Assembly: GCA_963771175.1 (NCBI GenBank)
Contig: CAVYSY010000039.1
Coordinates: forward strand, 160,001 to 224,000
DNA: 64,000 nt
Direction of reading: 5' to 3'
From: an uncultured delta proteobacterium
GTDB taxonomy: Bacteria; Myxococcota; Myxococcia; Myxococcales; Myxococcaceae
Shown here: positions 4,068 to 58,000 of the stretch, in pieces
Numbering within the stretch: the stretch's first letter is position 1
Layout: every line of letters starts with the position of its first letter
Position numbers and translations under genes: made by a program
Notes under the pieces: model-generated
The model's database searches: none
The model's input: the letters and a program-made list of their open reading frames with translations, nothing else
What the model was told of the DNA's origin: nothing

Positions 4068-4810
4068 ATGAACATCCTCGCCTCCTTCGGAGCCCCCGTC
4101 CTGATGCTCGCGCGCACCGTGCGAGCGAGCGCGCGTGACGGCCTGTCCTGGCGCGAGTGCCTGCGACAGCTCCACGAGCTGGGCGGGCGCAGCGTGTGGC
4201 TGGTGACGTCGGGCATGGCGTTCTTCGGGGCGGTGATGGTGACGATCGCCGACAGCCAGGCGCGCAAGCTCACGGGAAACCTGCCGGTGGTGGGCCCGCC
4301 CTACTTCGAGCTGATGGTGCGCGAGTTCGGCCCGGTGGTGTCCGCGCTGCTGGCGGCGGCGCGCGGAGGGGCCAGCCACAGTGCCGAGCTGTCCACCATG
4401 AGCGTCAACGAGCAGGTGGAGGCGCTGGAGATGTCGGCGGGGATCCGTACGCGGACCTCGTGGCGCCGAGGGTGGTGGCGGGGCTGGTGGGAGTGCCGCT
4501 GCTGTGCGTGCTCGGGACGATGGCGGCGGCGCTGTCGGCGGTGGCGACGGCGACGTGGGCCTTCGGAACGGACGGGACGGCCTTCATCGACGCGCGGTTC
4601 GTGGACGGGTGGGACGTGGCGGCCGGGCTGGTGAAGGCGGCGGGCTGCGGCATCTACATCCCCCTGGCGGCGGCGGTGGAGGGACTGTCCGCGCGCGGAG
4701 GCGCCGAGGCGGTGGGCGAGGCCACCACGCGCGGGGTGGTGGCGGCGTGCCTCGGCTGCCTGCTGATCGATTTCGTGGTGGCACTCGGCTTCCAGGCGCT
4801 GCGGGTGTGA
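4068..4810 (+). CDS. mlaE: MlaE-family ABC permease (one frameshift near 4440)
   Basis: VREFGPVVSALL..AELSTMSVNEQVEALE continues in another frame as DPYADLVAPRV...GGAEAVGEATTRGVV. Confidence 0.85.
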
Positions 4811-20276: not shown

Positions 20277-21710
20277 ATGTCTATCCATTCTGTCGATTCG
20301 CGCCCCGCTGACACACGGCGGCCCTTGCGTGCGGGGGCGCTGGCCCTGGCGGTGTTGATGCTGGTTACAGCGTGCGCCACGGGGGCCCCGATGGGCACGG
20401 CGGGGCACCGTTACCGTCCGTCCGCTCCTCACGACTCGCCCGAAGCGGGAGCGCTGGAGTCGGAAGCCGACGATGGGGGTCAGGGAGAAGCTATCTTCAC
20501 CAAGCTGCCCACGGACTTCGCGCCTGTGCAGGTGAGTGATTCCGAGCTTACGGCAGCCCTGACCACGCTTTGGCTCGACGTGCCGCTGCGAGTGGTCAGG
20601 TCCCGACCCACTCTGTATGTTGGCCGTAGGCTGGCGTTGGCTTCCGTGTCTTTGAGTGGGGAAGCCTGGAAATCAGACCTGGCGCAGTCCTATGGGCATT
20701 ATTGCGAGCGGTGCGGCACTCCGGGCGATTGTCTGACCCTGTTTGACGACGGGCCCCGCCTCCAAGATGACGACAAGCGCCGCCTTGCGCTTGCCCTGGC
20801 GGTGGGCCCTGCCCTGGAAGGCGTAAACGCGGAAGTGCGGGCGATGCTCAACCCTACACGGGCGCTGACGATGCTTAGCATCACCATAACGGTTTACATG
20901 GCGCTATTGTTGGCACCAATACCCGAGCCGGTGACAAAGGGCGCAGCCCTGGTGTTTAGCGCCGCCATGTGGGCTTATCTCGGGTGGGAATTCTTCAATC
21001 TACTGAAAGCCTATGCGGAGCTTCACGAAGACGCGCCCCGCGCCTCCACCTTTGCGGAACTGCGCGAAATAGGCGATCGGTTCGGCCGTGTCATCGGCCC
21101 CAACAGCGTGCGGATTCTCGTACTGGTGGGGACGGCGGCGATAGGAGAAACGGCGGCGCTCGCATCCAAGGCCCCGAAGCTACCAGGATTCGCACAAGCT
21201 TCGGAGAGGTTCGCGGCCAATGCCGGCTTGCACTTGCAGGATGCGGCAACCGGAGCCGAGCGCGTCATTATCTCGGTGCCCGAGGGCACGATCCGCCTTG
21301 TGTTGGCGCCTCACGTCGTGGCCATGGCGGCCCGGAGCGTTGCCGCTGGGAGTCCTGCACCGAGTCGGGGTAGGCTCCTGCCCAATGGGCATAGGGCGTG
21401 GGGATCGTATAGTGGCTTCAAGTCGGCCATGGGGTCAGCGGGCAAGGGCAAGGAATGGCATCACATCGTGGAGCAGACGCCGGGCAACGTGAAGCGGTTC
21501 GGGGGCGAGGCCCTTCACAATACCGAGAATGTCGCTGCGCTAGGAAAGCCCACCCACATGCGCATCAGTGCGTTTTACTCGTCGATTCAGCCGAAGATCA
21601 CGAACTCAAACACCCTGACAGTGCGGCAGTGGCTCAGCACTCAATCCTATGAAGCACAGCGCGAGTTCGGCTTGCTGACCATCAAGAACATTCTAGGAGG
21701 CATCTGGTGA
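20277..21710 (+). CDS. SitA5-like polymorphic lipoprotein toxin with C-terminal HNH/WHH-type nuclease
   Basis: RBS GAGAGG; lipobox LVTAC; YGHYCERCGTPGDCL; PEPVTKG; FGRVIGPNSVRIL; C-terminal WHHIVEQ...LHNTEN...H. Confidence 0.85.
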   Translation: MSIHSVDSRPADTRRPLRAGALALAVLMLVTACATGAPMGTAGHRYRPSAPHDSPEAGALESEADDGGQGEAIFTKLPTDFAPVQVSDSELTAALTTLWLDVPLRVVRSRPTLYVGRRLALASVSLSGEAWKSDLAQSYGHYCERCGTPGDCLTLFDDGPRLQDDDKRRLALALAVGPALEGVNAEVRAMLNPTRALTMLSITITVYMALLLAPIPEPVTKGAALVFSAAMWAYLGWEFFNLLKAYAELHEDAPRASTFAELREIGDRFGRVIGPNSVRILVLVGTAAIGETAALASKAPKLPGFAQASERFAANAGLHLQDAATGAERVIISVPEGTIRLVLAPHVVAMAARSVAAGSPAPSRGRLLPNGHRAWGSYSGFKSAMGSAGKGKEWHHIVEQTPGNVKRFGGEALHNTENVAALGKPTHMRISAFYSSIQPKITNSNTLTVRQWLSTQSYEAQREFGLLTIKNILGGIW

Positions 21711-22066
21711 CGGAGATTGAGGAACTTGTTGCGGAATTTGCCGAGAACGTGGCTGCACAGACGGACTCGATCTGGAGAGGCGACGCGAAGACCGGCAACA
21801 AGCACGCCAAGCGATACATAGCCGCATTCGACAAGTTGACCGCACATGGTGATGCCGGGCGCGATGCGCTCACCGTGCTGTTTACGCACCCTCGCATGGA
21901 CGTTCGGGTCTCGGCCGCTGCGTATTTGCTCCGATACCGGACGGCAGAGGCCCGCGCGATACTGGAAGAAGCGGCGACGGGTGAGGGGCTGGTACCCTTT
22001 GAGGCCTCGTTGGTACTGAAAAATTGGGAAAGCGGCACATGGGCCCTAGACCCTGCCGACGCTTGA
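21707..22066 (+). CDS. Cognate immunity protein (DUF2019-like)
   Basis: GTGA overlap with the toxin stop; GDAKTGNKHA...GRDAL..LFTHP..DVR..AA.YLL...W..G.W.LD. Confidence 0.85.
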   Translation: MTEIEELVAEFAENVAAQTDSIWRGDAKTGNKHAKRYIAAFDKLTAHGDAGRDALTVLFTHPRMDVRVSAAAYLLRYRTAEARAILEEAATGEGLVPFEASLVLKNWESGTWALDPADA

Positions 22067-49661: not shown

Positions 49662-49783
49662 GCTTGCTCCGGGTTGAGGCGACCGAGTCTAGCAGGAAGT
49701 GGCCGGGAGACTGTTTCCGGAGGTGAAAAAGGGGTGCGAGACACGGGCTCCCCCCGTGCCGGCTCGATGCTAGCTTGGCGGGT

Positions 49784-51446
49784 ATGAGCTTCTTCCAGGA
49801 ACCGCCGAGGCTTGGAAACCAGTACGACGACGACGCGCTGCTCCGGAGCTACCTCGCCCGGGTATTGCCGCAGGAGATGCGGGCCGGGCTGGAGGGCGAG
49901 TTCCGCGAGCTGGGCGAGCTGGGAGGCAGGTACTTCTACGAGTTCCAGCTCAGGGACCGACTGAACGAGCCCGAGCTGACGCAGTGGGACGCCTGGGGCA
50001 ACCGGGTGGACCACATCGAGGTGTCGCCGCTGTGGAAGGAGGCGGAGGCGCTGGCGGCGAAGCGGGGGCTGGTGGCGGTGGCGTACGAGCAGAAGAGCGG
50101 CGAGCTCTCGCGGGTGCACCAGTTCACGCTGAACTACCTGGTGCAGCCGTCGCTGGACGTCTACTCGTGCCCGCTGGCGATGACGGACGGGGCGGCGCGG
50201 ACGCTGCTGTCGCTGGGGAACCAGGAGCTGATCCAGCGCGCCCTGCCCCACCTGACGTCGAGGGACCCGGCGACGTTCTGGACGTCGGGGCAGTGGATGA
50301 CGGAGCGGACGGGCGGCTCGGACGTGGGGCTGACGCAGACGGTGGCGAGGAAGTCGCCCGAGGGGTGGAAGCTGTACGGAACGAAGTGGTTCACCTCGGC
50401 GACGACGGCGCAGATGGCGCTGACGCTGGGGAGGCCGGAGGGGAACGGACCGGGGGGCAAGGGGCTGGCGATCTTCTACGTGGAGACGCGAGGGGCGGAC
50501 GGGAGGCTGAACGGCATCAGCATCAACCGGCTGAAGGACAAGCTGGGGACGAGGAAGGTGCCGACGGCGGAGCTGACGCTGGACGGGACGCTGGCGGTGC
50601 CGGTGGCGGGGCTGACGGACGGCATCCGGAACATGTCGTCGATGCTGAACGTGACGCGGACGTGGAACGCGATGGGCGCGACGTGGAGCATGCGTCGGGC
50701 GCTGGCGCTGGCGAGGGACTACGCGAGCAAGCGGGTGCAGTTCGGGGCACCGCTGTCGGAGAAGCCGCTGCACGTGGACACGCTGGCGGGGCTGGAGGCC
50801 GAGTTCCACGGAGGCTTCCTGCTGGCGTTCCGGGCGGTGGAGCTGCTGGGGAAGCTGGAGGCGAGGACGGCGACGGAGGAGGAGCTGCTGCTTGCAGCGG
50901 CTGGTGACGCCGTTGGCGAAGCTGACGACGGGGCGGCAGGTGGTGCACGTGACGTCGGAGGCGGTGGAGAGCTTCGGCGGAGCGGGCTACGTGGAGGACA
51001 CGGGGCTGCCGAGGATGCTGGCGGACGCGCAGGTGCTGTCCATCTGGGAGGGGACGACGAACGTGCTCTCGCTGGACACGCTGCGGGCGATGGCGAAGGG
51101 CGGCTCGCTGGAGGCGCTGTACGCGGACGCGGAGCGGCGGCTGGGAGCGGCGAAGGACGCGGGCCTGCGGCCGTGCGTGGCGGCGGCGCACGACTCGCTG
51201 GAGAAGGCACGGGCGTGGGTGATGAAGGCGATGGAGAACCCGGCGGGGGTGGAGGCCGGGGCGCGGCGGTTCTCGCTGACGCTGGGCCGCACCTACGAAC
51301 TGGCGCTGCTGGTGGAGCACGCGCAGTGGTGCCTGGACAACGGGCACGGCCCGAGGGCCATGGCCGCGGCGCGGCGACTCATGCGCAACGGCGTGGACCT
51401 GATCGCCGACATGGACCTGGACGACTCACGACTGCTGGTGTCGTAG
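49784..51446 (+). CDS. Acyl-CoA dehydrogenase (AidB/ACAD11-like; frameshift near 50890)
   Basis: SCPLAMTDGA, GQWMTERTGGSDV, RLKDKLGT, FGGAGYVED, IWEGTTNV. Confidence 0.9.
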
Positions 51447-51513: not shown

Positions 51514-52370
51514 TCAGGGCACGGGATTGCCGCGCTCTTCCGCCTGCGCTCCAGCTCGCGCGAATCGCACCATTTCCTGAAGGATGGCGGGTTGGTCGAG
51601 CACGTCATTGTGGTGCTTCCCTTCAAGAATGCGCGTGGTGGCACTCGGGAACAGCGTCCCCAGTCGCTGCCCCATGTCCACGGGAATGACCTCATCCTGC
51701 GTCCCGTGGACGATGAGCACTGGCAGCTTGAGCCCGGGTGCCTTGGCCGCACTGTCGAACGGATCCCTCACGAGCAGGCTCGCGGGGAGCCACGGGAAGA
51801 CCCTCGCCCCTACCTCCACGATCGAGGTGTAGGGCGTGATGAGCACCAGCCGCGCGCCATGGCCCCGCTTCGCCATCTCGACCGCCACGCCCGAACCGAG
51901 CGACTGCCCCTGCAGCACCGTGAGCTCCCGAGGCACGCTCAACGCTCCGTGTAGATGCTCCAGTGCGGTCTCCGCTGCGGCGTAGATGCCTGCCTCGGAA
52001 AGACCCTGCCCCGCCGCGAGCCCGTAGCCCGGATACTCCACCGCGTAGAAGCCGAGTCCCTCCTCCTGGAAGTGCTGCGCCAGCCACTCGGTGCTCGCGA
52101 GTTGCTCACCGTTGCCGTGGAAATGCACCACCGTCGGTGCCCCAACGGGCGCGGGCACATGCAGCGCGATACACCGTCGACCCCTCTGGTCCGGGAATGC
52201 GCAGGAGCGTGGCTCCGGGCAGCGATGGCTCGCGGGCCCCCGGTGGCACCGGGAATACGATCTGCCTCTGGCTGAGGAACACCAGCAGGCAGAGACCCAC
52301 GTACGCGATGACCAGCGTGGCCAGAATCAGCGAGCAGCATCCGCCTCGCCCTTTGGAGAAAACGTTCCAT
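51514..52370 (-). CDS. Alpha/beta hydrolase (frameshifts in 5' part)
   Basis: HFHGNGE, EYPGYG, GQSLG, HGTQDEVIP, HHND. Confidence 0.85.
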
Positions 52371-52402
52371 GACGGAAGATTAACGCACCCGCGCTCCCAT
52401 CC

Positions 52403-52753
52403 CTATTCAGGATCCAAGGCCCAGGTCCCCTCTTCCCAGCGCTTCAGCGCCTCCCGAGCTTCAAAAGCAGCCAGTCCTACCCCCTTGGCGATCTCCTCCA
52501 AGACTACTTTGGCTTCCGCCGTCCGATGGCGGAGCAGGTAGACCGCAGCCATGCCTCGCACATCCACTCGTGGGTGCGTGAATAGCACGGCGAGCGCATC
52601 CCGTCCGGCATCACCCTAAGCACGCAGCTTTTTGAACGCGTCGCGACGCTTCGGGGCGTGCTTGTTTCCTGTCTTGGCGTTTCCGCGGAAGATCGCATCG
52701 ATCTGCGCCGCCGTATGCTGGGCGAATGCCTCAACAAGATCTACAAGATTCAT
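52403..52753 (-). pseudogene. Orphan DUF2019-like immunity gene with in-frame TAG at 52616-52618
   Basis: MNLVDLVEAFAQHTAAQIDAIFRGNAKTGNKHA...KLRA*GDAGRDALAVLFTHPRVDVR...WEEGTWALDPE, colinear with 21707-22066. Confidence 0.8.
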
Positions 52754-52783
52754 TATCGAGCCCCCTCTTCCGCAAGAGGAAAA

Positions 52784-53155
52784 TCAAAGGGGCTTGAACG
52801 TGCCCGCCTTCCACTGTTCTAGCGTCCACTCCGCTGAAAAGCCAATCAGACCGTTAGGGGCTTTAGCGAGTTCGGTAAGCACCCGTTCCCCCTCATCTGG
52901 TGCGAACTCCAAGACCGATGCAGCAACCCAGCAACGGGTGCCCAGGTCTGGATCATCGAGCAATCTCAACAACTGTCGCTGCGCATCTAGACCTCTTGCA
53001 CGCAACTCCCTGTCGATTGCGACGAGAAGATCGAACATGCGATTTCCGTCCTTTGGCTTGCCCGCATAAATGGCCCGCCACCTCTCAGCGGAAAGAATCC
53101 TGGTTTTTTCAATGAGCTGCTCCGTTGAGAGTTTCTTCACCTCTGCCTTTTTCAT
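52784..53155 (-). CDS. Cognate immunity protein (DUF2019-like) of the split toxin
   Basis: ATGA overlap with the toxin stop; ELRARG.DA...LL.LLD.PD...R..A...L...W..G. Confidence 0.8.
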   Translation of the reverse strand: MKKAEVKKLSTEQLIEKTRILSAERWRAIYAGKPKDGNRMFDLLVAIDRELRARGLDAQRQLLRLLDDPDLGTRCWVAASVLEFAPDEGERVLTELAKAPNGLIGFSAEWTLEQWKAGTFKPL

Positions 53156-53943
53156 GGAATGACCCCGAACTGCCTAAGAACCTTCAACCCGAAAGCGCGC
53201 TGTTCCTCATAGGACTTCGTGCGGAGCCATTCACGCACTACCAGACCACCCGTATCCCGGGATTTGGACGAGTAAAAGGCGCTTATTGCGTCATGCTTTG
53301 ACTTCTCGATCGCAATCACATTCTCGGTGTTGTGAATGGCTTCCGGACCGAAGCGCTCGATGTTCGCCTTGCGCTGTTCGACGATGTGGTGCCAGTGCTT
53401 GCCCTCACCTGCCGGCCCCATGAAGTCCTTGAAGTCATCAAAGGACTTGAACGCACGATAGCCGTTGGGAAGAAGCCTGCCCTCCTTGGGGATCCCACTC
53501 CCGCCTGCGGAGGACTTACCACCGCCGCTCCGGGCAGACATGGCAACGGCCGTGACCGGCAGGACAACTCGGATCGTCCCCTCGGGCACGGAGACGATGA
53601 CCCGCTCGGCCCCGGTTGCCGCATCCACCATGCGCAAGCCGGCGTTGACCTCTACTGCCCTCGAGGCTTGTCCAAAGCCCGGTAGCTTTGGTGCCTTGGA
53701 CACGAGTGCCGCGGTTTCGCCTACGGCCGCCGTCCCCACCATGACGAGAATGCGCACGCTGTTGGGGCCAATGACCCGCCCGAACCGCTCGCCCGCCTCG
53801 CGTAGTTCCGCGAAGGTGGAGGCTCGCGCCGCGTCCTCGGAGAGCTGCGCATACGCCCGGATCAGGTCGAAGAATTCCCATCCGAGGTAGCCCCACATGA
53901 GCACCGTAAACGCAGCGGCCACGCCCTTCGTGACCGGCTCGGG
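53152..53943 (-). pseudogene. 3' half of a SitA5-like toxin (nuclease tip), interrupted by the element
   Basis: PEPVTKG...GYLGWEFF...FGRVIGPNSVRIL...WHHIVEQ...IHNTEN; colinear with 20277-21710. Confidence 0.9.
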
Positions 53944-54419
53944 AAAGCCCCCAACGACGCACCCCCTTAAAGACGCAGCCGTCGAGAGATTTGGTGGTCA
54001 TCACCCACCCGCTCCATCCGTTCGTGGGTCGCGCATTCCCCGTGCAGCAGCGCCTGCGCTACCTCGGCCGCCCCAGCGTCGTGCTGCTGTTTCCCGACGG
54101 CCGTCTCGCGAGGGTTCCGGAGGATTGGACGGACCTGCGGCCCAGGCCCCCACCGCTCGAGCTCCGAGGGAAATGTCCGAAGCTGCACCCTGAATCGCTC
54201 CGCGAGCTGAGTGCCCTTCTCGATGACTTGAGGCATAGGTCTCAGCTCCATGACCAGGAAGGTAGTGCGTCGGACGAGAAGCGCCAAGGGCCGGTCATCG
54301 CCGGGCGCGCTCTACGCCGCACTCCCCGCGGCGGCCCGGCACGAGCTGCTGGGCGTACTGGCCGACGTGCTGCTCAAGGCCGTCACCAAGGCTCCCGCCG
54401 GAAGCGAGGCAAGCGATGA
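53943..54419 (+). CDS. DUF5372 (Y4bD/Y4pK)-like protein; frame open back to the left junction
   Basis: VITHPLHPFVGRAF...DGRLARVPEDWTDL; no ATG in the integrated state (TTG at 53991, GTG at 53994). Confidence 0.7.
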   Translation, partial: ESPQRRTPLKTQPSRDLVVITHPLHPFVGRAFPVQQRLRYLGRPSVVLLFPDGRLARVPEDWTDLRPRPPPLELRGKCPKLHPESLRELSALLDDLRHRSQLHDQEGSASDEKRQGPVIAGRALRRTPRGGPARAAGRTGRRAAQGRHQGSRRKRGKR

Positions 54420-54588
54420 CCACCAAGATTCGGCCAGAGCACCTGGCCAGACCCGCGCTGGTGTACATCCGCCAGTCCACCCTGTTGCAGGTCCACGAGC
54501 ACCGGGAGTCGACCGAGCGCCAGTACGCCCTGGTGGAGCTGGCCAAGAAACTCGGCTGGGACGCCACCCAGGTCGAGGTCATCGATGA
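54250..54588 (+). CDS. Small accessory ORF of the recombinase element
   Basis: ATG 54250; helical LYAALPAAARHELLGVLADVLLKAV; overlaps the LSR start. Confidence 0.45.
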   Translation: MTRKVVRRTRSAKGRSSPGALYAALPAAARHELLGVLADVLLKAVTKAPAGSEASDDHQDSARAPGQTRAGVHPPVHPVAGPRAPGVDRAPVRPGGAGQETRLGRHPGRGHR

Positions 54589-56784
54589 GGACCTGGGTCA
54601 GAGCGGTGCCAGTGCCGCCCGGCGCAAGGGCTTCCAGCGGCTGACGGCCGAGGTCAGCCTCGGCAAGGTGGGCGCCGTCTTGTCGCTGGAGGTGTCACGA
54701 CTGGCGCGCTCCTCGTCCGATTGGCACCGGCTGCTGGATTTGTGCGCGCTCTCCGACACGCTCATCATCGACGACGATGGCGTCTACGACGCCAACGACT
54801 TCAACGACCGGCTGGTGCTGGGCATGAAGGGCACCATGAGTGACGCCGAGCGCCACTCCATGCGCCTGCGCCTGCAAGGCGGCATCCTGCACAAGGCGAA
54901 GAAGGGCGAGCTCGTCTATCCCCCGCCCACTGGCTACGTCTTCGAGGACGGTGCGCTCGTCTTCGACCCCGACGAGCAGGTGCAGAAAGCCATCCGTCTC
55001 CTCTTCGAGCGCTTCCGCCTGGAAGGCAGTGTCAGCGGCGCCGTGCGCTACTTCACCCGCAACAAACTGCTCTTCCCCTCACGCCATGCTCACCGGGGCG
55101 CTCCGGCGGAAATTCGCTGGCACGCGCTGGACGTCCCGCGTGCCGTGTCCATCCTGCGCAATCCGGTGTACGCCGGAGCCTACGCCTGGGGCCGCAATCG
55201 CGACCGGCGCGTCCTCGTCGAAGGAGAGGTGCGACGCAAGCACGAGACGCTCCAGGAGCCGGAGCAGTGGCATGCGTTCCTGCGCGATGCGCACCCCGCG
55301 TACATCTCCTGGGAGCAGTACCTGGAGAACTTGAAGCGCCTCGAAGACAACGCCGTCAGAGGGGCGCATGTGCGTGGCCGAGGTGCGCCACGCGGAGGTC
55401 CGGCGCTGCTCCAGGGGCTGGTGCTGTGCGGCAAGTGTGGCCGGCGGATGCACCCGGTCTACTCCGTCGCCGACGACCCCAGCTACCAGTGCAGCCGGCG
55501 CCTGTACGGCGAGGGCAACTGCTGGTCCACGGTCGCGCGCCGCATTGACGACAAGATAGTCGAGACCCTGCTGACGGCTTTCGCCCCGCCCGAATTGGAC
55601 CTGTCGCTGGCGGTCCTCAAGGAGGTGGAGCGGCAGGCCGAGGAGGTCAACCGCCAGTGGAAGCTGCGCCTGGAGCGGGTGCGCTACGAGGCCCAGCGCG
55701 CCGAGCGCCAGTACAACGCCGTGGAGCCGGAGAATCGCGTGGTGGCCCGCACGCTGGAGTCGCGCTGGAACCAGAAGCTCGAGGAGCTCGCGCGGGTCGA
55801 GCATGAGTACGAGCAGGCCAGGAGCACGAGTCCGCTGGAACTCTCGGACAAGGACAAGAAGAAGATACTGGCGCTGGCGGGCGACCTGCCCGGGCTGTGG
55901 AACGCGCCGACCACGACCAACTCGGACAAGAAGCGGATACTGCGGCTGCTCATCCAGGAGGTGGTGCTCTCGCCGGTGGACGTGCCAAAGCGGGCCACTC
56001 GCATCCGCATCCTCTGGAAGACGGGAGCCATCACCGAGTTGCAAACGCCTCGGCCCACGTTTTCTGAATCCAGAAGGACGCCACCCCAGGTCATCGCCGA
56101 GATTCGCAAGCTCGCCAGGAAGCATTACAGCGATCCGCAGATAGCAGAGGAGCTCAACCGGGGTGGCTTGAAGAGCGGCCTGCGTCACGCCTTCACCCGC
56201 CGCCTGGTGGCGGGCATTCGCAAGCGACAGGGCATTCGTGCTGGACGAACTGCTGGAGGATTCAGCATCCGGGCGCCCGAGCGCGACGAGCAGGGGCTTT
56301 ATTCCATCCGCGGTCTGATCGCGCATTTCGGAGTGACGGCCCCCATGGTCCACTACTGGGTCAACCGCGGCCTGATCACCCCCGTGCACAGCCGCACGCC
56401 CATACACAAATGGAACAAGGAGCCCTTCTGGTTCGAGATGACGCCCGAATTGGAGGCGCTCCTGGCCAAGGCGCGCGACCAGGGCTACGCAGCCGGGCAA
56501 GCCGCCGCATCCGCGGTCACAGTGGCCATCCGCGCCCGCCGGCTCGTCTGCCGGACGGCCGCTACTCCACGCGCGGTCTCGTCGAGAAGTACGGAGTAAC
56601 CTGGGACACCGTGCGGTACTGGATAAAGAAGGGCATCCTCACGCCCGAGCGCGCTCTACCGAAGGGCAATTTCTGCTTCCGGCTGACCCACGAGGTGGAG
56701 CGGCACATCCAGGCCGCCCTTGCTCGAAAACGGACGCCACGCGGTCCCACGCAGCACCACCATCATCACCTCCATTCCCGCTAA
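54416..56784 (+). CDS. Large serine recombinase (resolvase + recombinase + zinc ribbon + coiled coil + tandem C-terminal HTHs; frameshift near 56490)
   Basis: ALVYIRQST (catalytic Ser), DEDLGQSG, EVSRLARS, LRNPVYAGAY, LLQGLVLCGKCG; two MerR-like HTH repeats, the second in frame 56410-56784. Confidence 0.93.
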
Positions 56785-56810
56785 CACAGGTGTCCTGATG
56801 CAGGTTCCGG

Positions 56811-57449
56811 GGCCAGCAAGAGCGCCATGTACGTCGCGATCGCGAGGCTGACGGTCGCCAGCACCCGCGTGGGGTCGAGCATGGCCCGCACTTCCGCGCC
56901 CACTCCTTCCAGTGCCGGTCCCACCGCCAGGGCCAGGGCAATGCTGCGCTTGTCGTCGGCTTGCAGAAAGGGACCGTCTTCCAACAGCGTCAGACAATCA
57001 CTGGGAGTGCCGCGCCGCTCGCAATAACCCCCATACGACGTCAACAGCTCCGATTGCCCTGCATCTCCACCCGAGCCGCCGGTGCCCGGCGCCAGCCTGC
57101 CGCCATGTTGCACGGGGGCGGAGGAGGCCACCCGCAGCGGAATGTTGAGCACCAGCGTCGCCAGGGCGGCATGGAACTCCGCGTCCCCAATCCGCACCGG
57201 TTCGAAGTCCGTGGGCAACCTGGCGAAGACGAGCACGCCGTTGTCCACCTCATCGCTCCGTGCCGCCGTTCGCTCCTTCGTCTCCAGGGACTCCCGAGGT
57301 GTTGGCCACTGGTCGCGATACGTCGTCAGCCGTCCACCCGGGTGCGCCCCCGTGGAACACGCCCCCAGGAGCACCAGCCCAACTAGAGCCAGCGCGCCCA
57401 CGCGAGAGCACGGTCGCTCACCAAAGGGGGGCAGATGATGAGTAGACAT
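56811..57449 (-). pseudogene. 5' half of the SitA5-like lipoprotein toxin
   Basis: RBS GAGAGG; lipobox LLGAC; RLPTDFEPV; YGGYCERRGTPSDCL; ALALAVGPALEGV; ends MALLLA at the junction. Confidence 0.9.
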
Positions 57450-57509
57450 GGCCGCACCTCTCCTGGCGAGTCGTACGAGCTGAAACGCGCCGCTTATCCG
57501 AGGGGCCAG

Positions 57510-57555
57510 ATGACAAGTGGTCGAGGTGCTCCCTGTCAAGCCGTCGGGACTGGTG
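57510..57555 (-). promoter_or_regulatory. Putative toxin-operon promoter, second copy
   Basis: Minus strand CACCAGTCCCGACGGC-TTGACA-N18-TGTCAT. Confidence 0.55.
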
Positions 57556-57585
57556 GGGAGTCGGGTCGGTTATTCGAGTCACCCA

Positions 57586-57800
57586 CTACGAACCACCACG
57601 GTCCGTGAGCAACTCGTGAGGAGTTCCGGCGTTCCGCGTCGCGCGCCAGGCTCGAGCGAAACCGCCCGAGACCACGAAGCGGGGAAACGTCACCCACTGC
57701 TCGACGAAGATCCGCGCCAGGACGTCGAAGGGGCCACGGAAGGGCACCGGCGCTGTCATTTCGAGACGGTGACCGCGACCCTGGAGTGCTCCCGCCAGGC
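57586..57800 (-). pseudogene. C-terminal remnant of a small membrane-protein gene (DUF962-like)
   Basis: Reads ALQGRGHRLEMTAPVPFRGPFDVLARIFVEQWVTFPRFVVSGGFARAWR; no intact 5' part found. Confidence 0.4.
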
Positions 57801-57935
57801 CCTCGCGTGGCCAGCAGCGGCGGCCATACCGGCAAGGGCACTCCAGAGGTGACGCGAGGGGCTCCAGTGATGCGCACGCCTACATCGTACACCCATGAGA
57901 GTGCGCGGCAGTCGCCCCTTCGCGTCCACTCCGTG

Positions 57936-57983
57936 TTGCATTCGTGTCCATTCGACACTATGTTGGTGTACACAAAACACCAA
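57936..57983 (+). promoter_or_regulatory. Sigma70 promoter overlapped by two tandem NrtR-type 21-bp operators
   Basis: TTGCAT(57936)-N17-TATGTT(57959); palindromes TTCGTGT-N7-ACACTAT (57941-61) and perfect TTGGTGT-N7-ACACCAA (57963-83). Confidence 0.75.
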
Positions 57984-58000
57984 TAAGACGGAGAAGGACC

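Follow-up and report, generated by a model that had tools for sequence, protein, structure and literature searches.

Serine recombinases are known to interrupt genes with elements that are later removed precisely. SPbeta is a prophage of ~134 kb, which resides at one attB and whose excision is tied to sporulation, when its recombinase SprA reportedly rebuilds the split gene. In Bacillus subtilis SPbeta, with its integrase SprA (YokA) and its directionality factor SprB (YotN), splits spsM, which is rejoined by precise excision of the prophage. The skin element (SpoIVCA) and the fdxN element of Anabaena (XisF) are also intervening elements removed precisely by a serine recombinase, each fixed at a single locus, from which it is excised in a terminally differentiated cell. 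Excerpts from PMC5025042 place skin within sigK.

Large serine recombinases (LSRs) of the TndX-TnpX-like type, found in Tn5397 and Tn4451, are multi-targeting according to excerpts from PMC10083194: closely related enzymes enter a number of diverged targets with a common motif about a fixed core dinucleotide, their elements move as circles, and DUF4368 is present in 63% of the members of the TndX-like clade. Multi-targeting is assigned there when one LSR cluster at 90% identity is found in >3 target gene clusters at 50% identity. SitA toxins are described, in excerpts from PMC8546572, as being transferred by outer-membrane exchange in a TraA/TraB-dependent manner.

The locus described here lies in a 64,000-nucleotide stretch of DNA from an uncultured delta proteobacterium, and the whole of this stretch is referred to as the window. 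Judged by its sequence, the host gene is a SitA5-family lipoprotein toxin gene cut in two by an LSR element. The features of the host gene and its neighbours are the following:

56811..57449, reverse strand: SitA5 N-terminal half, 213 codons from the ATG at 57449, with a signal peptide carrying a lipobox and escort-domain profile positions 24–182
56781..56810, reverse strand: read-through of the N-terminal half into the right end of the element, 9 codons (PEPASGHLC), stop at 56781
53152..53943, reverse strand: SitA5 C-terminal half, 263 codons, stop at 53152, with escort-domain profile positions 183–262 and the C-terminal toxin region
52784..53155, reverse strand: putative cognate immunity gene (DUF2019), intact, its start overlapping the toxin stop
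20277..21710, forward strand: intact SitA5 paralog, 477 aa, uninterrupted

The N-terminal half matches the NCBIfam profile NF050093 (SitA5_escort) over positions 24–187 (99.5 bits, E 2.2e-28) and the C-terminal half over positions 183–262 (95.1 bits, E 4.9e-27). Each half alone is below the cut-off of 160 bits, yet the two are contiguous in the profile. Aligned to the intact relative P0001 they abut without a gap, covering residues 1–205 and 206–468, and on P0002 they cover residues 1–213 and 216–478, again gap-free; neither half contains a stop or an indel. Removal in silico of 2,867 bp across a 2-bp GG core restores a 476-codon frame; among 120 intact SitA5 relatives, which their sources name “SitA5 family polymorphic toxin”, the resulting junction peptide LLLAPEPV is present unchanged in 30. 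This bears out the preliminary description of the locus, which had joined 56811 to 53943 into a 476-aa ORF (213+263) of two undamaged halves; the 22-mer empty site that it proposed is the same as the site derived from the element ends.

The lipobox, an RBS-like motif and the immunity gene are also retained, as had been claimed. An SD-like GGAGAGG is located upstream of the ATG at 57449, a lipobox LLGAC (...LVLLGAC...) can be read from the translation near the N-terminus, and the immunity gene matches DUF2019 with 25.0 bits against a cut-off of 23.3. For the promoter, likewise claimed to be retained, no sigma-70-like sites were found in 52300–58000. For the C-terminal toxin region no Pfam family came up, even with E values as high as 10 admitted. 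A W-H-H-like motif was spotted by eye in this region. The paralog at 20277–21710, correctly given as 477 aa, matches NF050093 over profile positions 18–262 with 189 bits (cut-off 160); precisely where the element has its target, it contains a 2-codon insert (APIPEP).

The element itself comprises the following features:

53944..56810, forward strand: LSR mobile element, 2,867 bp, cargo-less, one copy of the GG core counted in
53942..53943, no strand: left GG crossover dinucleotide, on the host side at the junction with the C-terminal half
56809..56810, no strand: right GG crossover dinucleotide, the final two bases of the element
53991..54419, forward strand: 142-aa DUF5372 protein, sharing 4 nt with the start of the LSR, a candidate recombination directionality factor
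54416..56599, forward strand: ORF of the large serine recombinase, written as 727 aa, with native sequence up to about residue 692
56492..56511, forward strand: frameshift within the linker of the LSR, with 1 surplus base at 56492 and, after 56510, 2 bases absent, net -1
56410..56784, forward strand: ORF to which the second, C-terminal MerR-like HTH of the LSR is displaced, with native sequence from about 56511

The length of 2,867 bp between the two toxin halves, stated previously, is right, and the ends, [A/C]AAGCC... and ...GGTTCCGG, are now set by nine other copies of 78–97% nucleotide identity. The same dinucleotide is found at both junctions in all nine copies with two flanks (GG in five, AA in three, GA in one), so that the core covaries between the junctions across copies, and no target duplication longer than the 2-bp core is present in any of them. 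This is the pattern of conservative LSR-type exchange and agrees with the 2-bp core that had been assumed. A 4-bp register, CGGG, was considered for the window and rejected, as the other four right-flanked copies of the GG type read C or T, not G, after ...TTCCGG; the CGGG register would also give an out-of-frame excision product. No regulator or cargo gene was found inside the element among its ORFs and Pfam matches.

The same element with the same ends is present in 10 of 61 LSR loci, in genomes of Archangium, Cystobacter and Corallococcus. C. fuscus Cbf 10 contains three 100% identical copies and A. gephyra PVMSAZ two that are 99.9% identical, while no second copy was found within the 64-kb window. 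The ten insertions with at least one flank are distributed over SitA5 genes (four), a second lipoprotein family (four), an intergenic site (one, occupied by a 99.9% identical copy) and an unresolved site (one). All four SitA5 insertions split NF050093 between profile positions 182 and 183. The insertions in the second, also multi-copy, lipoprotein family belong to a sister lineage with an AA or GA core, consisting of the three identical C. fuscus copies and one from an Archangium MAG. Among 48 short N-half proteins of SitA5, six, counting that of the window, carry the element-derived tail APEPASGHLC; the five others are 55–70% identical to the window's. The interrupted alleles P0244 and P0247 occur on 12 and 16 contigs, so interrupted states do persist.

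The occupied SitA5 host genes are only 35–65% identical to one another, indicating that these insertions represent repeated, independent homing events, and no synteny was found among the occupied loci outside the toxin-immunity module. The insertion in the window is one of many made by a multi-copy, target-specific family that has repeatedly entered diverged sitA5 genes at one and the same codon. The preliminary description had called for a comparison of boundaries in related strains; the SitA5 codon and the element ends are indeed the same, but they are found in different, non-syntenic paralogs. All eight gene-interrupting insertions remain open through the junction after excision in silico, a weak test at ~67% GC, and the four SitA5 hosts retain full coverage of the NF050093 profile. 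The intact halves, the open junctions and the persistence of interrupted alleles fit selection for recoverable genes as well as recent insertion.

The recombinase of the window is an LSR, with catalytic, Recombinase, zinc-ribbon and predicted coiled-coil domains and exchange over a 2-bp core. Its Pfam matches are the resolvase domain PF00239 (E 1.2e-20), the Recombinase domain PF07508 (E 5.5e-14) and the zinc ribbon PF13408 (E 3.9e-08); DUF4368 is absent from the Pfam matches of both this protein and the intact 789-aa LSR of copy L005. Tyr17, Arg19, Gln20 and Ser21 are invariant in all 27 aligned relatives, and Cys338, Cys341, Cys359 and Cys369 of the zinc ribbon are likewise invariant among the aligned relatives. 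In the AlphaFold2 model (mean pLDDT 77.6) the zinc-ribbon strands are followed by long paired helices, 391–435 and 441–470, and residues 391–470 are thus modelled as a coiled-coil motif inserted in the zinc-ribbon domain. The best NCBIfam match is XisF, which with 87.6 bits against a cut-off of 375 does not make the enzyme its equivalog.

The C-terminal extension of ~250 residues contains one or two MerR-like HTHs, at residues 629–658 and, in intact copies only, at 717–747. Intact copies have one continuous LSR ORF of 788–789 aa, and in L001, L002, L005–L008 and L010 the second MerR-like HTH is continuous with the LSR. In the window a frameshift, placed by alignment of ten element copies, displaces it into a separate ORF (MerR_1, E 6.9e-05). 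Neither this frameshift nor the DUF5372 ORF upstream of the LSR figured in the preliminary description. As 17 of 21 distant relatives end naturally at most 23 residues from the frameshift column, the shortened LSR of the window may still work. An acyl-CoA dehydrogenase gene near the element is also split between frames, and the LSR frameshift may therefore be an indel error of the assembly. Both element genes are under purifying selection, with dN/dS of 0.12–0.24 for the LSR and 0.37–0.45 for DUF5372.

The DUF5372 ORF is assigned by its match to PF17342 (E 5.4e-09), and such a gene is found upstream of the LSR in 22 of 61 LSR loci. No sequence or fold match of DUF5372 to any solved protein was found. 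Complex prediction for LSR residues 140–692 with DUF5372 residues 1–92 gave a score of 0.69, as opposed to 0.00 for the best of three controls; 116 of 157 solved complexes attain this mark, as do 2 of 215 mismatched pairs, numbers that are only rough, own alignments having been used. At least 94% of contacts are shared between the runs, and the partner pLDDT is at least 78. Directionality factors are reported to bind LSRs at the zinc ribbon or the coiled-coil base (excerpts from PMC11795197 and PMC11722253), and binding to this place on the LSR is predicted for DUF5372. Its predicted position makes excision plausible for the element family.

The element is probably best explained as a selfish, target-specific insertion family, which uses the expansive toxin family as safe landing sites. 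The recombinase would join a circular form (attP, ...GGTTCC-GG-[A/C]AAGCC...) to its target in sitA5, where the conserved L-A-P-E-P motif of the escort domain is encoded, with strand exchange over the GG dinucleotide. The toxin would thereby be divided into an N-terminal stub of 222 aa and a C-terminal portion without a start and a signal peptide, and so would be turned off, while the downstream immunity gene is left intact. In this way the family would home again and again to one site of diverged sitA5 genes, and the sister lineage to another lipoprotein family. Precise excision would rebuild the toxin gene, with DUF5372 probably acting as the directionality factor. As the recombinase of the window has lost its last domain by the frameshift, the window's copy may depend on help in trans or be stuck.

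The preliminary description had left open whether the locus is a disruptive insertion or a reversible switch. The latter, a toxin ON/OFF switch co-opted by the host in the manner of skin or SPbeta, excised on a developmental or stress signal through DUF5372 and toggling one digit of the SitA “barcode”, is unlikely. The exact restoration of a full-length SitA5 with a junction found in intact relatives, the retained immunity gene, the intact halves of all eight interrupted host genes and the evident mobility of the family are what it would lead one to expect, a switch that is controlled and reversible would also need a partner at the directionality-factor site, where DUF5372 is predicted to bind, and the closest solved LSR is SPbeta SprA. 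However, the insertions lie in differing paralogs, 35–65% identical and without shared synteny, a 99.9% identical copy occupies an intergenic site, and the three identical sister-lineage copies in another gene family are indicative of a spreading element and not of a fixed regulatory module. In addition, the LSR of the window is frameshifted, the element has neither regulator nor cargo, and the literature searched yielded no description of sitA genes split by a recombinase element and no link between SitA and serine recombinases. The disruptive insertion is thus the better supported of the two readings, the skin-like switch being without direct support.

A single ancient insertion in a sitA5 ancestor, passed on by vertical descent or gene duplication, would account for the position and orientation common to all SitA5 insertions through common descent, and sitAI loci are often multi-copy and on mobile DNA (excerpts from PMC8546572). 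The divergence values make this very improbable, as the elements are 93–96% identical in nucleotides while their hosts are 71% identical in nucleotides or 40–65% in amino acids. The window and L004 share 95.7% of nucleotides in the element, 71% in the flanks and 65% of residues in the host proteins; for L002 the element is 93.5% identical and the host proteins 40%. For the LSR, the window and L001 show a synonymous divergence of only 0.09, and identical or near-identical copies occupy non-homologous targets of one genome. An assembly artefact or chance juxtaposition, with ORFs that are not halves of one gene or a misplaced element, can practically be dismissed: repeats do break assemblies, L001 stopping exactly at the element end and L009 being an element-only contig, and a nearby gene of the window is likewise split between two frames, but the two halves meet residue to residue both in intact relatives and in the family profile, and complete chromosomes show junctions of this structure too, again with matching core dinucleotides.

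The element family resembles several known systems, each in part. Like SPbeta in spsM, it is an LSR element interrupting a gene that precise excision would rejoin; SPbeta YokA/SprA is the closest solved structure to the window LSR (9dxh, E 1.1e-20, profile 65–527), and the directionality factor site in SPbeta is equivalent to the predicted position of DUF5372. In contrast to SPbeta, the element is 2.9 kb long, cargo-less and multi-copy with many paralogous targets, DUF5372 is without a match to solved proteins, and the LSR has the ~250-aa C-terminal extension. Unlike skin and fdxN, which as intervening elements are fixed at one orthologous locus, the family is scattered over different paralogs without shared synteny and includes one intergenic copy.

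The IS size of the element and its serine recombinase with a MerR-like HTH are reminiscent of the IS607 family. In the excerpts describing that family, the enzyme is small, with an N-terminal DNA-binding domain and minimal target specificity. Membership was rejected, as the LSR of the window has an N-terminal catalytic domain, C-terminal HTHs, LSR domains and a specific target. The host gene shares the escort-domain match, the lipobox and the downstream immunity gene with the SitA5 toxins of outer-membrane exchange, but differs from known members in being interrupted and in a C-terminal region without a Pfam family.

As in the TndX/TnpX-type transposons (Durrant et al. 2022), related recombinases enter diverged targets around a fixed core dinucleotide. 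The copies of at least 92% nucleotide identity (window, L001–L004) occupy three SitA5 genes that are 40–65% identical and, once each, an intergenic and an unresolved site. The family departs from the TndX-like clade in that no DUF4368 was found in its LSR, no cargo is carried and a DUF5372 partner gene is present; its targets are, for the most part, a single codon position within a single family of proteins.

The SitA5-family lipoprotein toxin gene of this region is interrupted by an IS-sized serine-recombinase element, which is target-specific and takes as its landing site a codon conserved across an expansive family of toxins. The toxin gene and the element comprise the following parts:

57449 (ATG) to 56811, minus strand: N-half of the SitA5 toxin, 213 codons, with signal peptide and lipobox
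53944–56810: the inserted element, 2,867 bp
56410–56784: ORF with a MerR-like helix-turn-helix (HTH), overlapping the recombinase ORF
54416–56599: large serine recombinase (LSR) ORF, with Resolvase, Recombinase and Zn_ribbon_recom domains
53991–54419: DUF5372 ORF, between the toxin halves
53943 to the stop at 53152, minus strand: C-half of the SitA5 toxin, 263 open codons

The SitA5 escort-domain model (NCBIfam NF050093, cut-off 160 bits) matches the N-half over profile positions 24–187 (99.5 bits, E 2.2e-28) and the C-half over positions 183–262 (95.1 bits, E 4.9e-27), while the uninterrupted paralog at 20277–21710 (477 aa) matches over positions 18–262 with 189 bits. Among 8,000 candidates scored, the C-half finds 236 longer proteins at E ≤0.001; the best 120 of these measure 462–640 aa, and the name “SitA5 family polymorphic toxin” is attached to several of them in the source records. 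In alignments to the closest intact relatives, the halves cover residues 1–205 and 206–468 of P0001, abutting and gapless, and residues 1–213 and 216–478 of P0002, again without gaps, which makes the ORFs the two halves of a single gene. This alignment also bears out the preliminary description in that neither half contains a stop or an indel. The lipobox is kept in the signal peptide of the N-half, and an SD-like GGAGAGG precedes the ATG at 57449 on the minus strand. The DUF2019 immunity gene (52784–53155) is likewise intact, its start overlapping the toxin stop. The frame of the N-half enters the element for nine codons (PEPASGHLC) and stops at 56781. A sigma-70-like consensus scan of 52300–58000 returned no sites. 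A Pfam search with the toxin domain of the split gene gave no match, whether the limit was E 0.01 or E 10; a W-H-H motif was read in this domain by eye.

Downstream of the cognate immunity gene lies a second DUF2019 immunity-like gene (52409–52756, minus strand), an orphan immunity pseudogene that shares 64% identity across 116 residues with the paralog's immunity protein (21707–22066) and contains an in-frame stop. The G+C content is 0.53–0.59 over 52400–53400, which takes in the immunity genes together with the toxin gene's 3' end, compared with 0.65–0.70 in the element and flanks; the low value fits a horizontally acquired toxin-immunity cassette. The closest relatives of the genes in this region are from Archangium, and the regional G+C is about 67%.

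The ends of the element are fixed by its other copies. A scan of genome contigs with the recombinase yielded 61 loci, ten of which (from Archangium, Cystobacter and Corallococcus) carry the same element at 78–97% nucleotide identity, with similarity beginning and ending at the same two points. All copies start with [A/C]AAGCC and finish with TTCC or TTTC followed by two bases, and these terminal two bases are repeated just before the first base of the element in all nine copies with both flanks (GG in five, AA in three and GA in one). The occurrence of three dinucleotides, with the left and right junctions in agreement every time, is the mark that a serine recombinase leaves when it crosses over at a 2-bp core. 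In the window, a run of G also permits a 4-bp register (CGGG). The gene rejoined in that register would be out of frame, and the register is contradicted by the flanks of the other copies and by the protein junction census. The GG register is fixed by the base that follows ...TTCCGG: of the other GG-type copies, four have a right flank, and in these the base is C or T and never G. The length of 2,867 bp, the 22-nt empty site and the rejoined frame of 476 codons proposed from the sequence of the window all agree with these ends. The right end of the element (56781–56820, minus strand) remakes the P-E-P codons, with ccg gaa cct replacing ccc gag ccg, and the arm before the core is alike in element and target, GG[T/C]TC[C/G]. 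A search of the window for a second copy or a solo att site gave only the self match and others of at most 43 nt with E ≥0.044.

Ten insertions, that of the window included, have at least one flank and are distributed as follows:

SitA5 genes: the window, L002 (A. violaceum Cb vi76), L004 (A. gephyra) and L010 (Corallococcus coralloides), in each case with toxin and recombinase in antisense orientation
Second lipoprotein family: L005–L007 (C. fuscus) and L008 (an Archangium MAG), each at ...RRFLGDF/NKPR..., sense; the core is AA or GA
Intergenic: L003, between the neighbor of an Rhs toxin and an mlaE-like gene
Target unassigned: L001, with the left flank alone on the contig

The contig of L001 ends exactly at the element end, and that of L009 consists of the element alone. 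In all four SitA5 insertions the NF050093 match is split between profile positions 182 and 183, while the host SitA5 proteins share only 35–65% mutual identity. The element of the window is 95.7% identical to that of L004, whereas the flanks are 71% identical, and no synteny with the occupied loci was found beyond the toxin-immunity module. Diverged hosts and flanks around a near-identical element, with no shared synteny, mark these as independent insertions and not as one inherited event. The chromosome of Cystobacter fuscus Cbf 10 carries three copies that are 100% identical, and the two copies in A. gephyra PVMSAZ (L003, L004) are 99.9% identical. Six of 48 matches among short N-half-like proteins, the window's own included, end in ...APEPASGHLC, the read-through tail of the element. 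These proteins add five interrupted SitA5 alleles, 55–70% identical to the N-half of the window; one belongs to an A. violaceum chromosome, while another two occur on 12 and 16 contigs.

The second target family is occupied, at one conserved position, by a sister lineage of the element. Its junctions lie at locus positions 4528/7397 (L005–L007) and 219/3088 (L008), and the four hosts are 47–64% identical. Their 701 relatives (327–1043 aa) are all named “hypothetical” or “lipoprotein”, and no Pfam or NCBIfam model matched. The Atlas places the family among unnamed Myxococcota clusters with a weak lead (0.85) to Tox-REase-5, so that “toxin” is for this family a lead only. The intergenic A. gephyra copy (L003, 148–4466) once more has a polymorphic-toxin-like locus as its neighbor, being placed shortly downstream of a 1,284-aa Rhs-repeat protein and a small ORF.

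The SitA5 target occurs in two main forms among the best 120 intact relatives. The junction is free of indels in 50 (the APEP class) and reads exactly LLLAPEPV in 30 of these, which supports the proposal that precise excision would restore the toxin in frame. A two-residue insert (APVPEP or APIPEP) is found at the junction in 69 relatives, as in the paralog of the window (insert region 20900–20925), and a one-residue insert in one. Occupied alleles are APEP in nine of nine cases and APVPEP in none. The two-codon insert would shift the right arm of the target away from the core, and such alleles may be refractory to the element.

The element contains DUF5372 and the recombinase and nothing else. 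The Y-x-R-Q-S motif and four cysteines of the LSR are invariant in all 27 aligned relatives. Its model (mean pLDDT 77.6) predicts a coiled coil, made of helices 391–435 and 441–470, after the zinc-ribbon strands, and a C-terminal extension bears a MerR-like HTH. Between copies, both genes show purifying selection, with dN/dS of 0.12–0.24 for the LSR and 0.37–0.45 for DUF5372 (four comparisons each). By tblastn, 22 of the 61 loci have a DUF5372 ORF immediately upstream of their recombinase. DUF5372-LSR pairs, with an LSR ~40% identical to that of the window, are present among L011–L061 in Solirubrobacterales, Acidobacteriota and other MAGs; the two-gene module is thus widespread and not confined to myxobacteria.

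The recombinase copy of the window differs from the others by one additional base at 56492 and the loss of two after 56510 (−1 overall). Its frame ends in 35 foreign residues, and the second MerR-like HTH is cut off from it and falls in the ORF at 56410–56784, while intact copies have a single LSR ORF of 788–789 aa. Among distant LSR relatives, 17 of the 21 aligned end naturally within 23 residues of the frameshift column, and the shortened LSR keeps an architecture found across the family and may work. Trust in this frameshift is affected by a second break nearby, in an AidB-like acyl-CoA dehydrogenase gene (49775–51446, plus strand) split between two frames near 50860–50900, with positions 2–79 of the Acyl-CoA_dh_1 profile in one frame and 87–147 in the other. 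The region contains either two real frameshifts or assembly indel errors. A programmed LSR frameshift is contradicted by seven copies (L001, L002, L005–L008, L010) that read through in one frame. Both A. gephyra copies have a 1-nt LSR insertion in the same column (equivalent to 55839 of the window) with different bases (G, A), which could be a sequencing error or an oddity of the site.

Serine-recombinase elements travel as excised circles, and a spreading family must therefore excise. In the predicted complex of LSR residues 140–692 with DUF5372 residues 1–92, the score is 0.69, and the best of three controls scores 0.00; among 157 solved complexes 116 attain this mark, as do two of 215 mismatched pairs, a rough guide only, as custom alignments were used. 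Contact agreement between runs is at least 94%, and the partner pLDDT is at least 78. The predicted interface comprises the zinc ribbon (337–343, 364), the coiled-coil ends (388–418, 464–517) and residues 531–540, and passages of two reports place the action of directionality factors at this zinc ribbon/coiled-coil-end spot (PMC11795197, PMC11722253). The DUF5372 model shows a small beta domain (1–50, pLDDT >90), a helix (67–89) and a disordered basic tail. DUF5372 has no match among PDB sequences (all E above 0.8), and Foldseek gives no fold match at E ≤0.001, only weak small beta-barrel look-alikes. The prediction is thus unlikely to have been memorized from a solved pair, and DUF5372 is a candidate directionality factor, a role that can be tested.

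The preliminary description, correct in its anatomy of two halves of one gene, left a choice between a disruptive insertion and an ON/OFF switch. The insertion stands and is to be widened to one hit of a target-specific element family; with the immunity gene unaltered, it would silence the toxin and cost the host little. The distribution of the element lends no support to a regulated social-identity switch, and the LSR frameshift in the window copy weakens this reading further; it keeps a small probability, since the family is equipped for reversibility and the eight interrupted genes all remain intact. A broader proposal, which we regard as improbable, is that DUF5372-LSR elements reversibly edit social identity through the SitA5 codon and, in the sister lineage, through the second lipoprotein family, and that the toxin family has answered with a target-destroying insert. 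If so, DUF5372 would be a built-in directionality factor with which elements hop in and out of the escort-domain codon, single “barcode digits” would be switched off and on with immunity kept, and the APVPEP insert would be a sign that kin discrimination and a mobile element are engaged in an arms race.

SitA toxins are described in PMC8546572 as combinatorial kin/non-kin “barcodes”, with 25–80 sitAI loci per myxobacterial genome. The literature searched, which does not extend to the paper defining SitA5, revealed no link between SitA toxins and (serine) recombinase elements, its SitA5 reports contain nothing on recombinase-split toxin genes, and DUF5372 is not mentioned in it. An insertion of the target-specific element is in principle exactly reversible and leaves immunity in place, and a codon-seeking element would be a previously undescribed force acting on SitA barcodes. 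The recombinase module is very compact (2.9 kb) and occurs in several phyla with the conserved partner DUF5372. For genome engineering, the comparison of copies offers an LSR together with its attP and several attB variants from nature, as well as three core dinucleotides that work and a candidate factor for excision. By sequence, the closest solved relative of the LSR is the SPbeta integrase YokA/SprA (E 1.1e-20), while its best NCBIfam match, XisF, is far under the cut-off (87.6 vs 375 bits).
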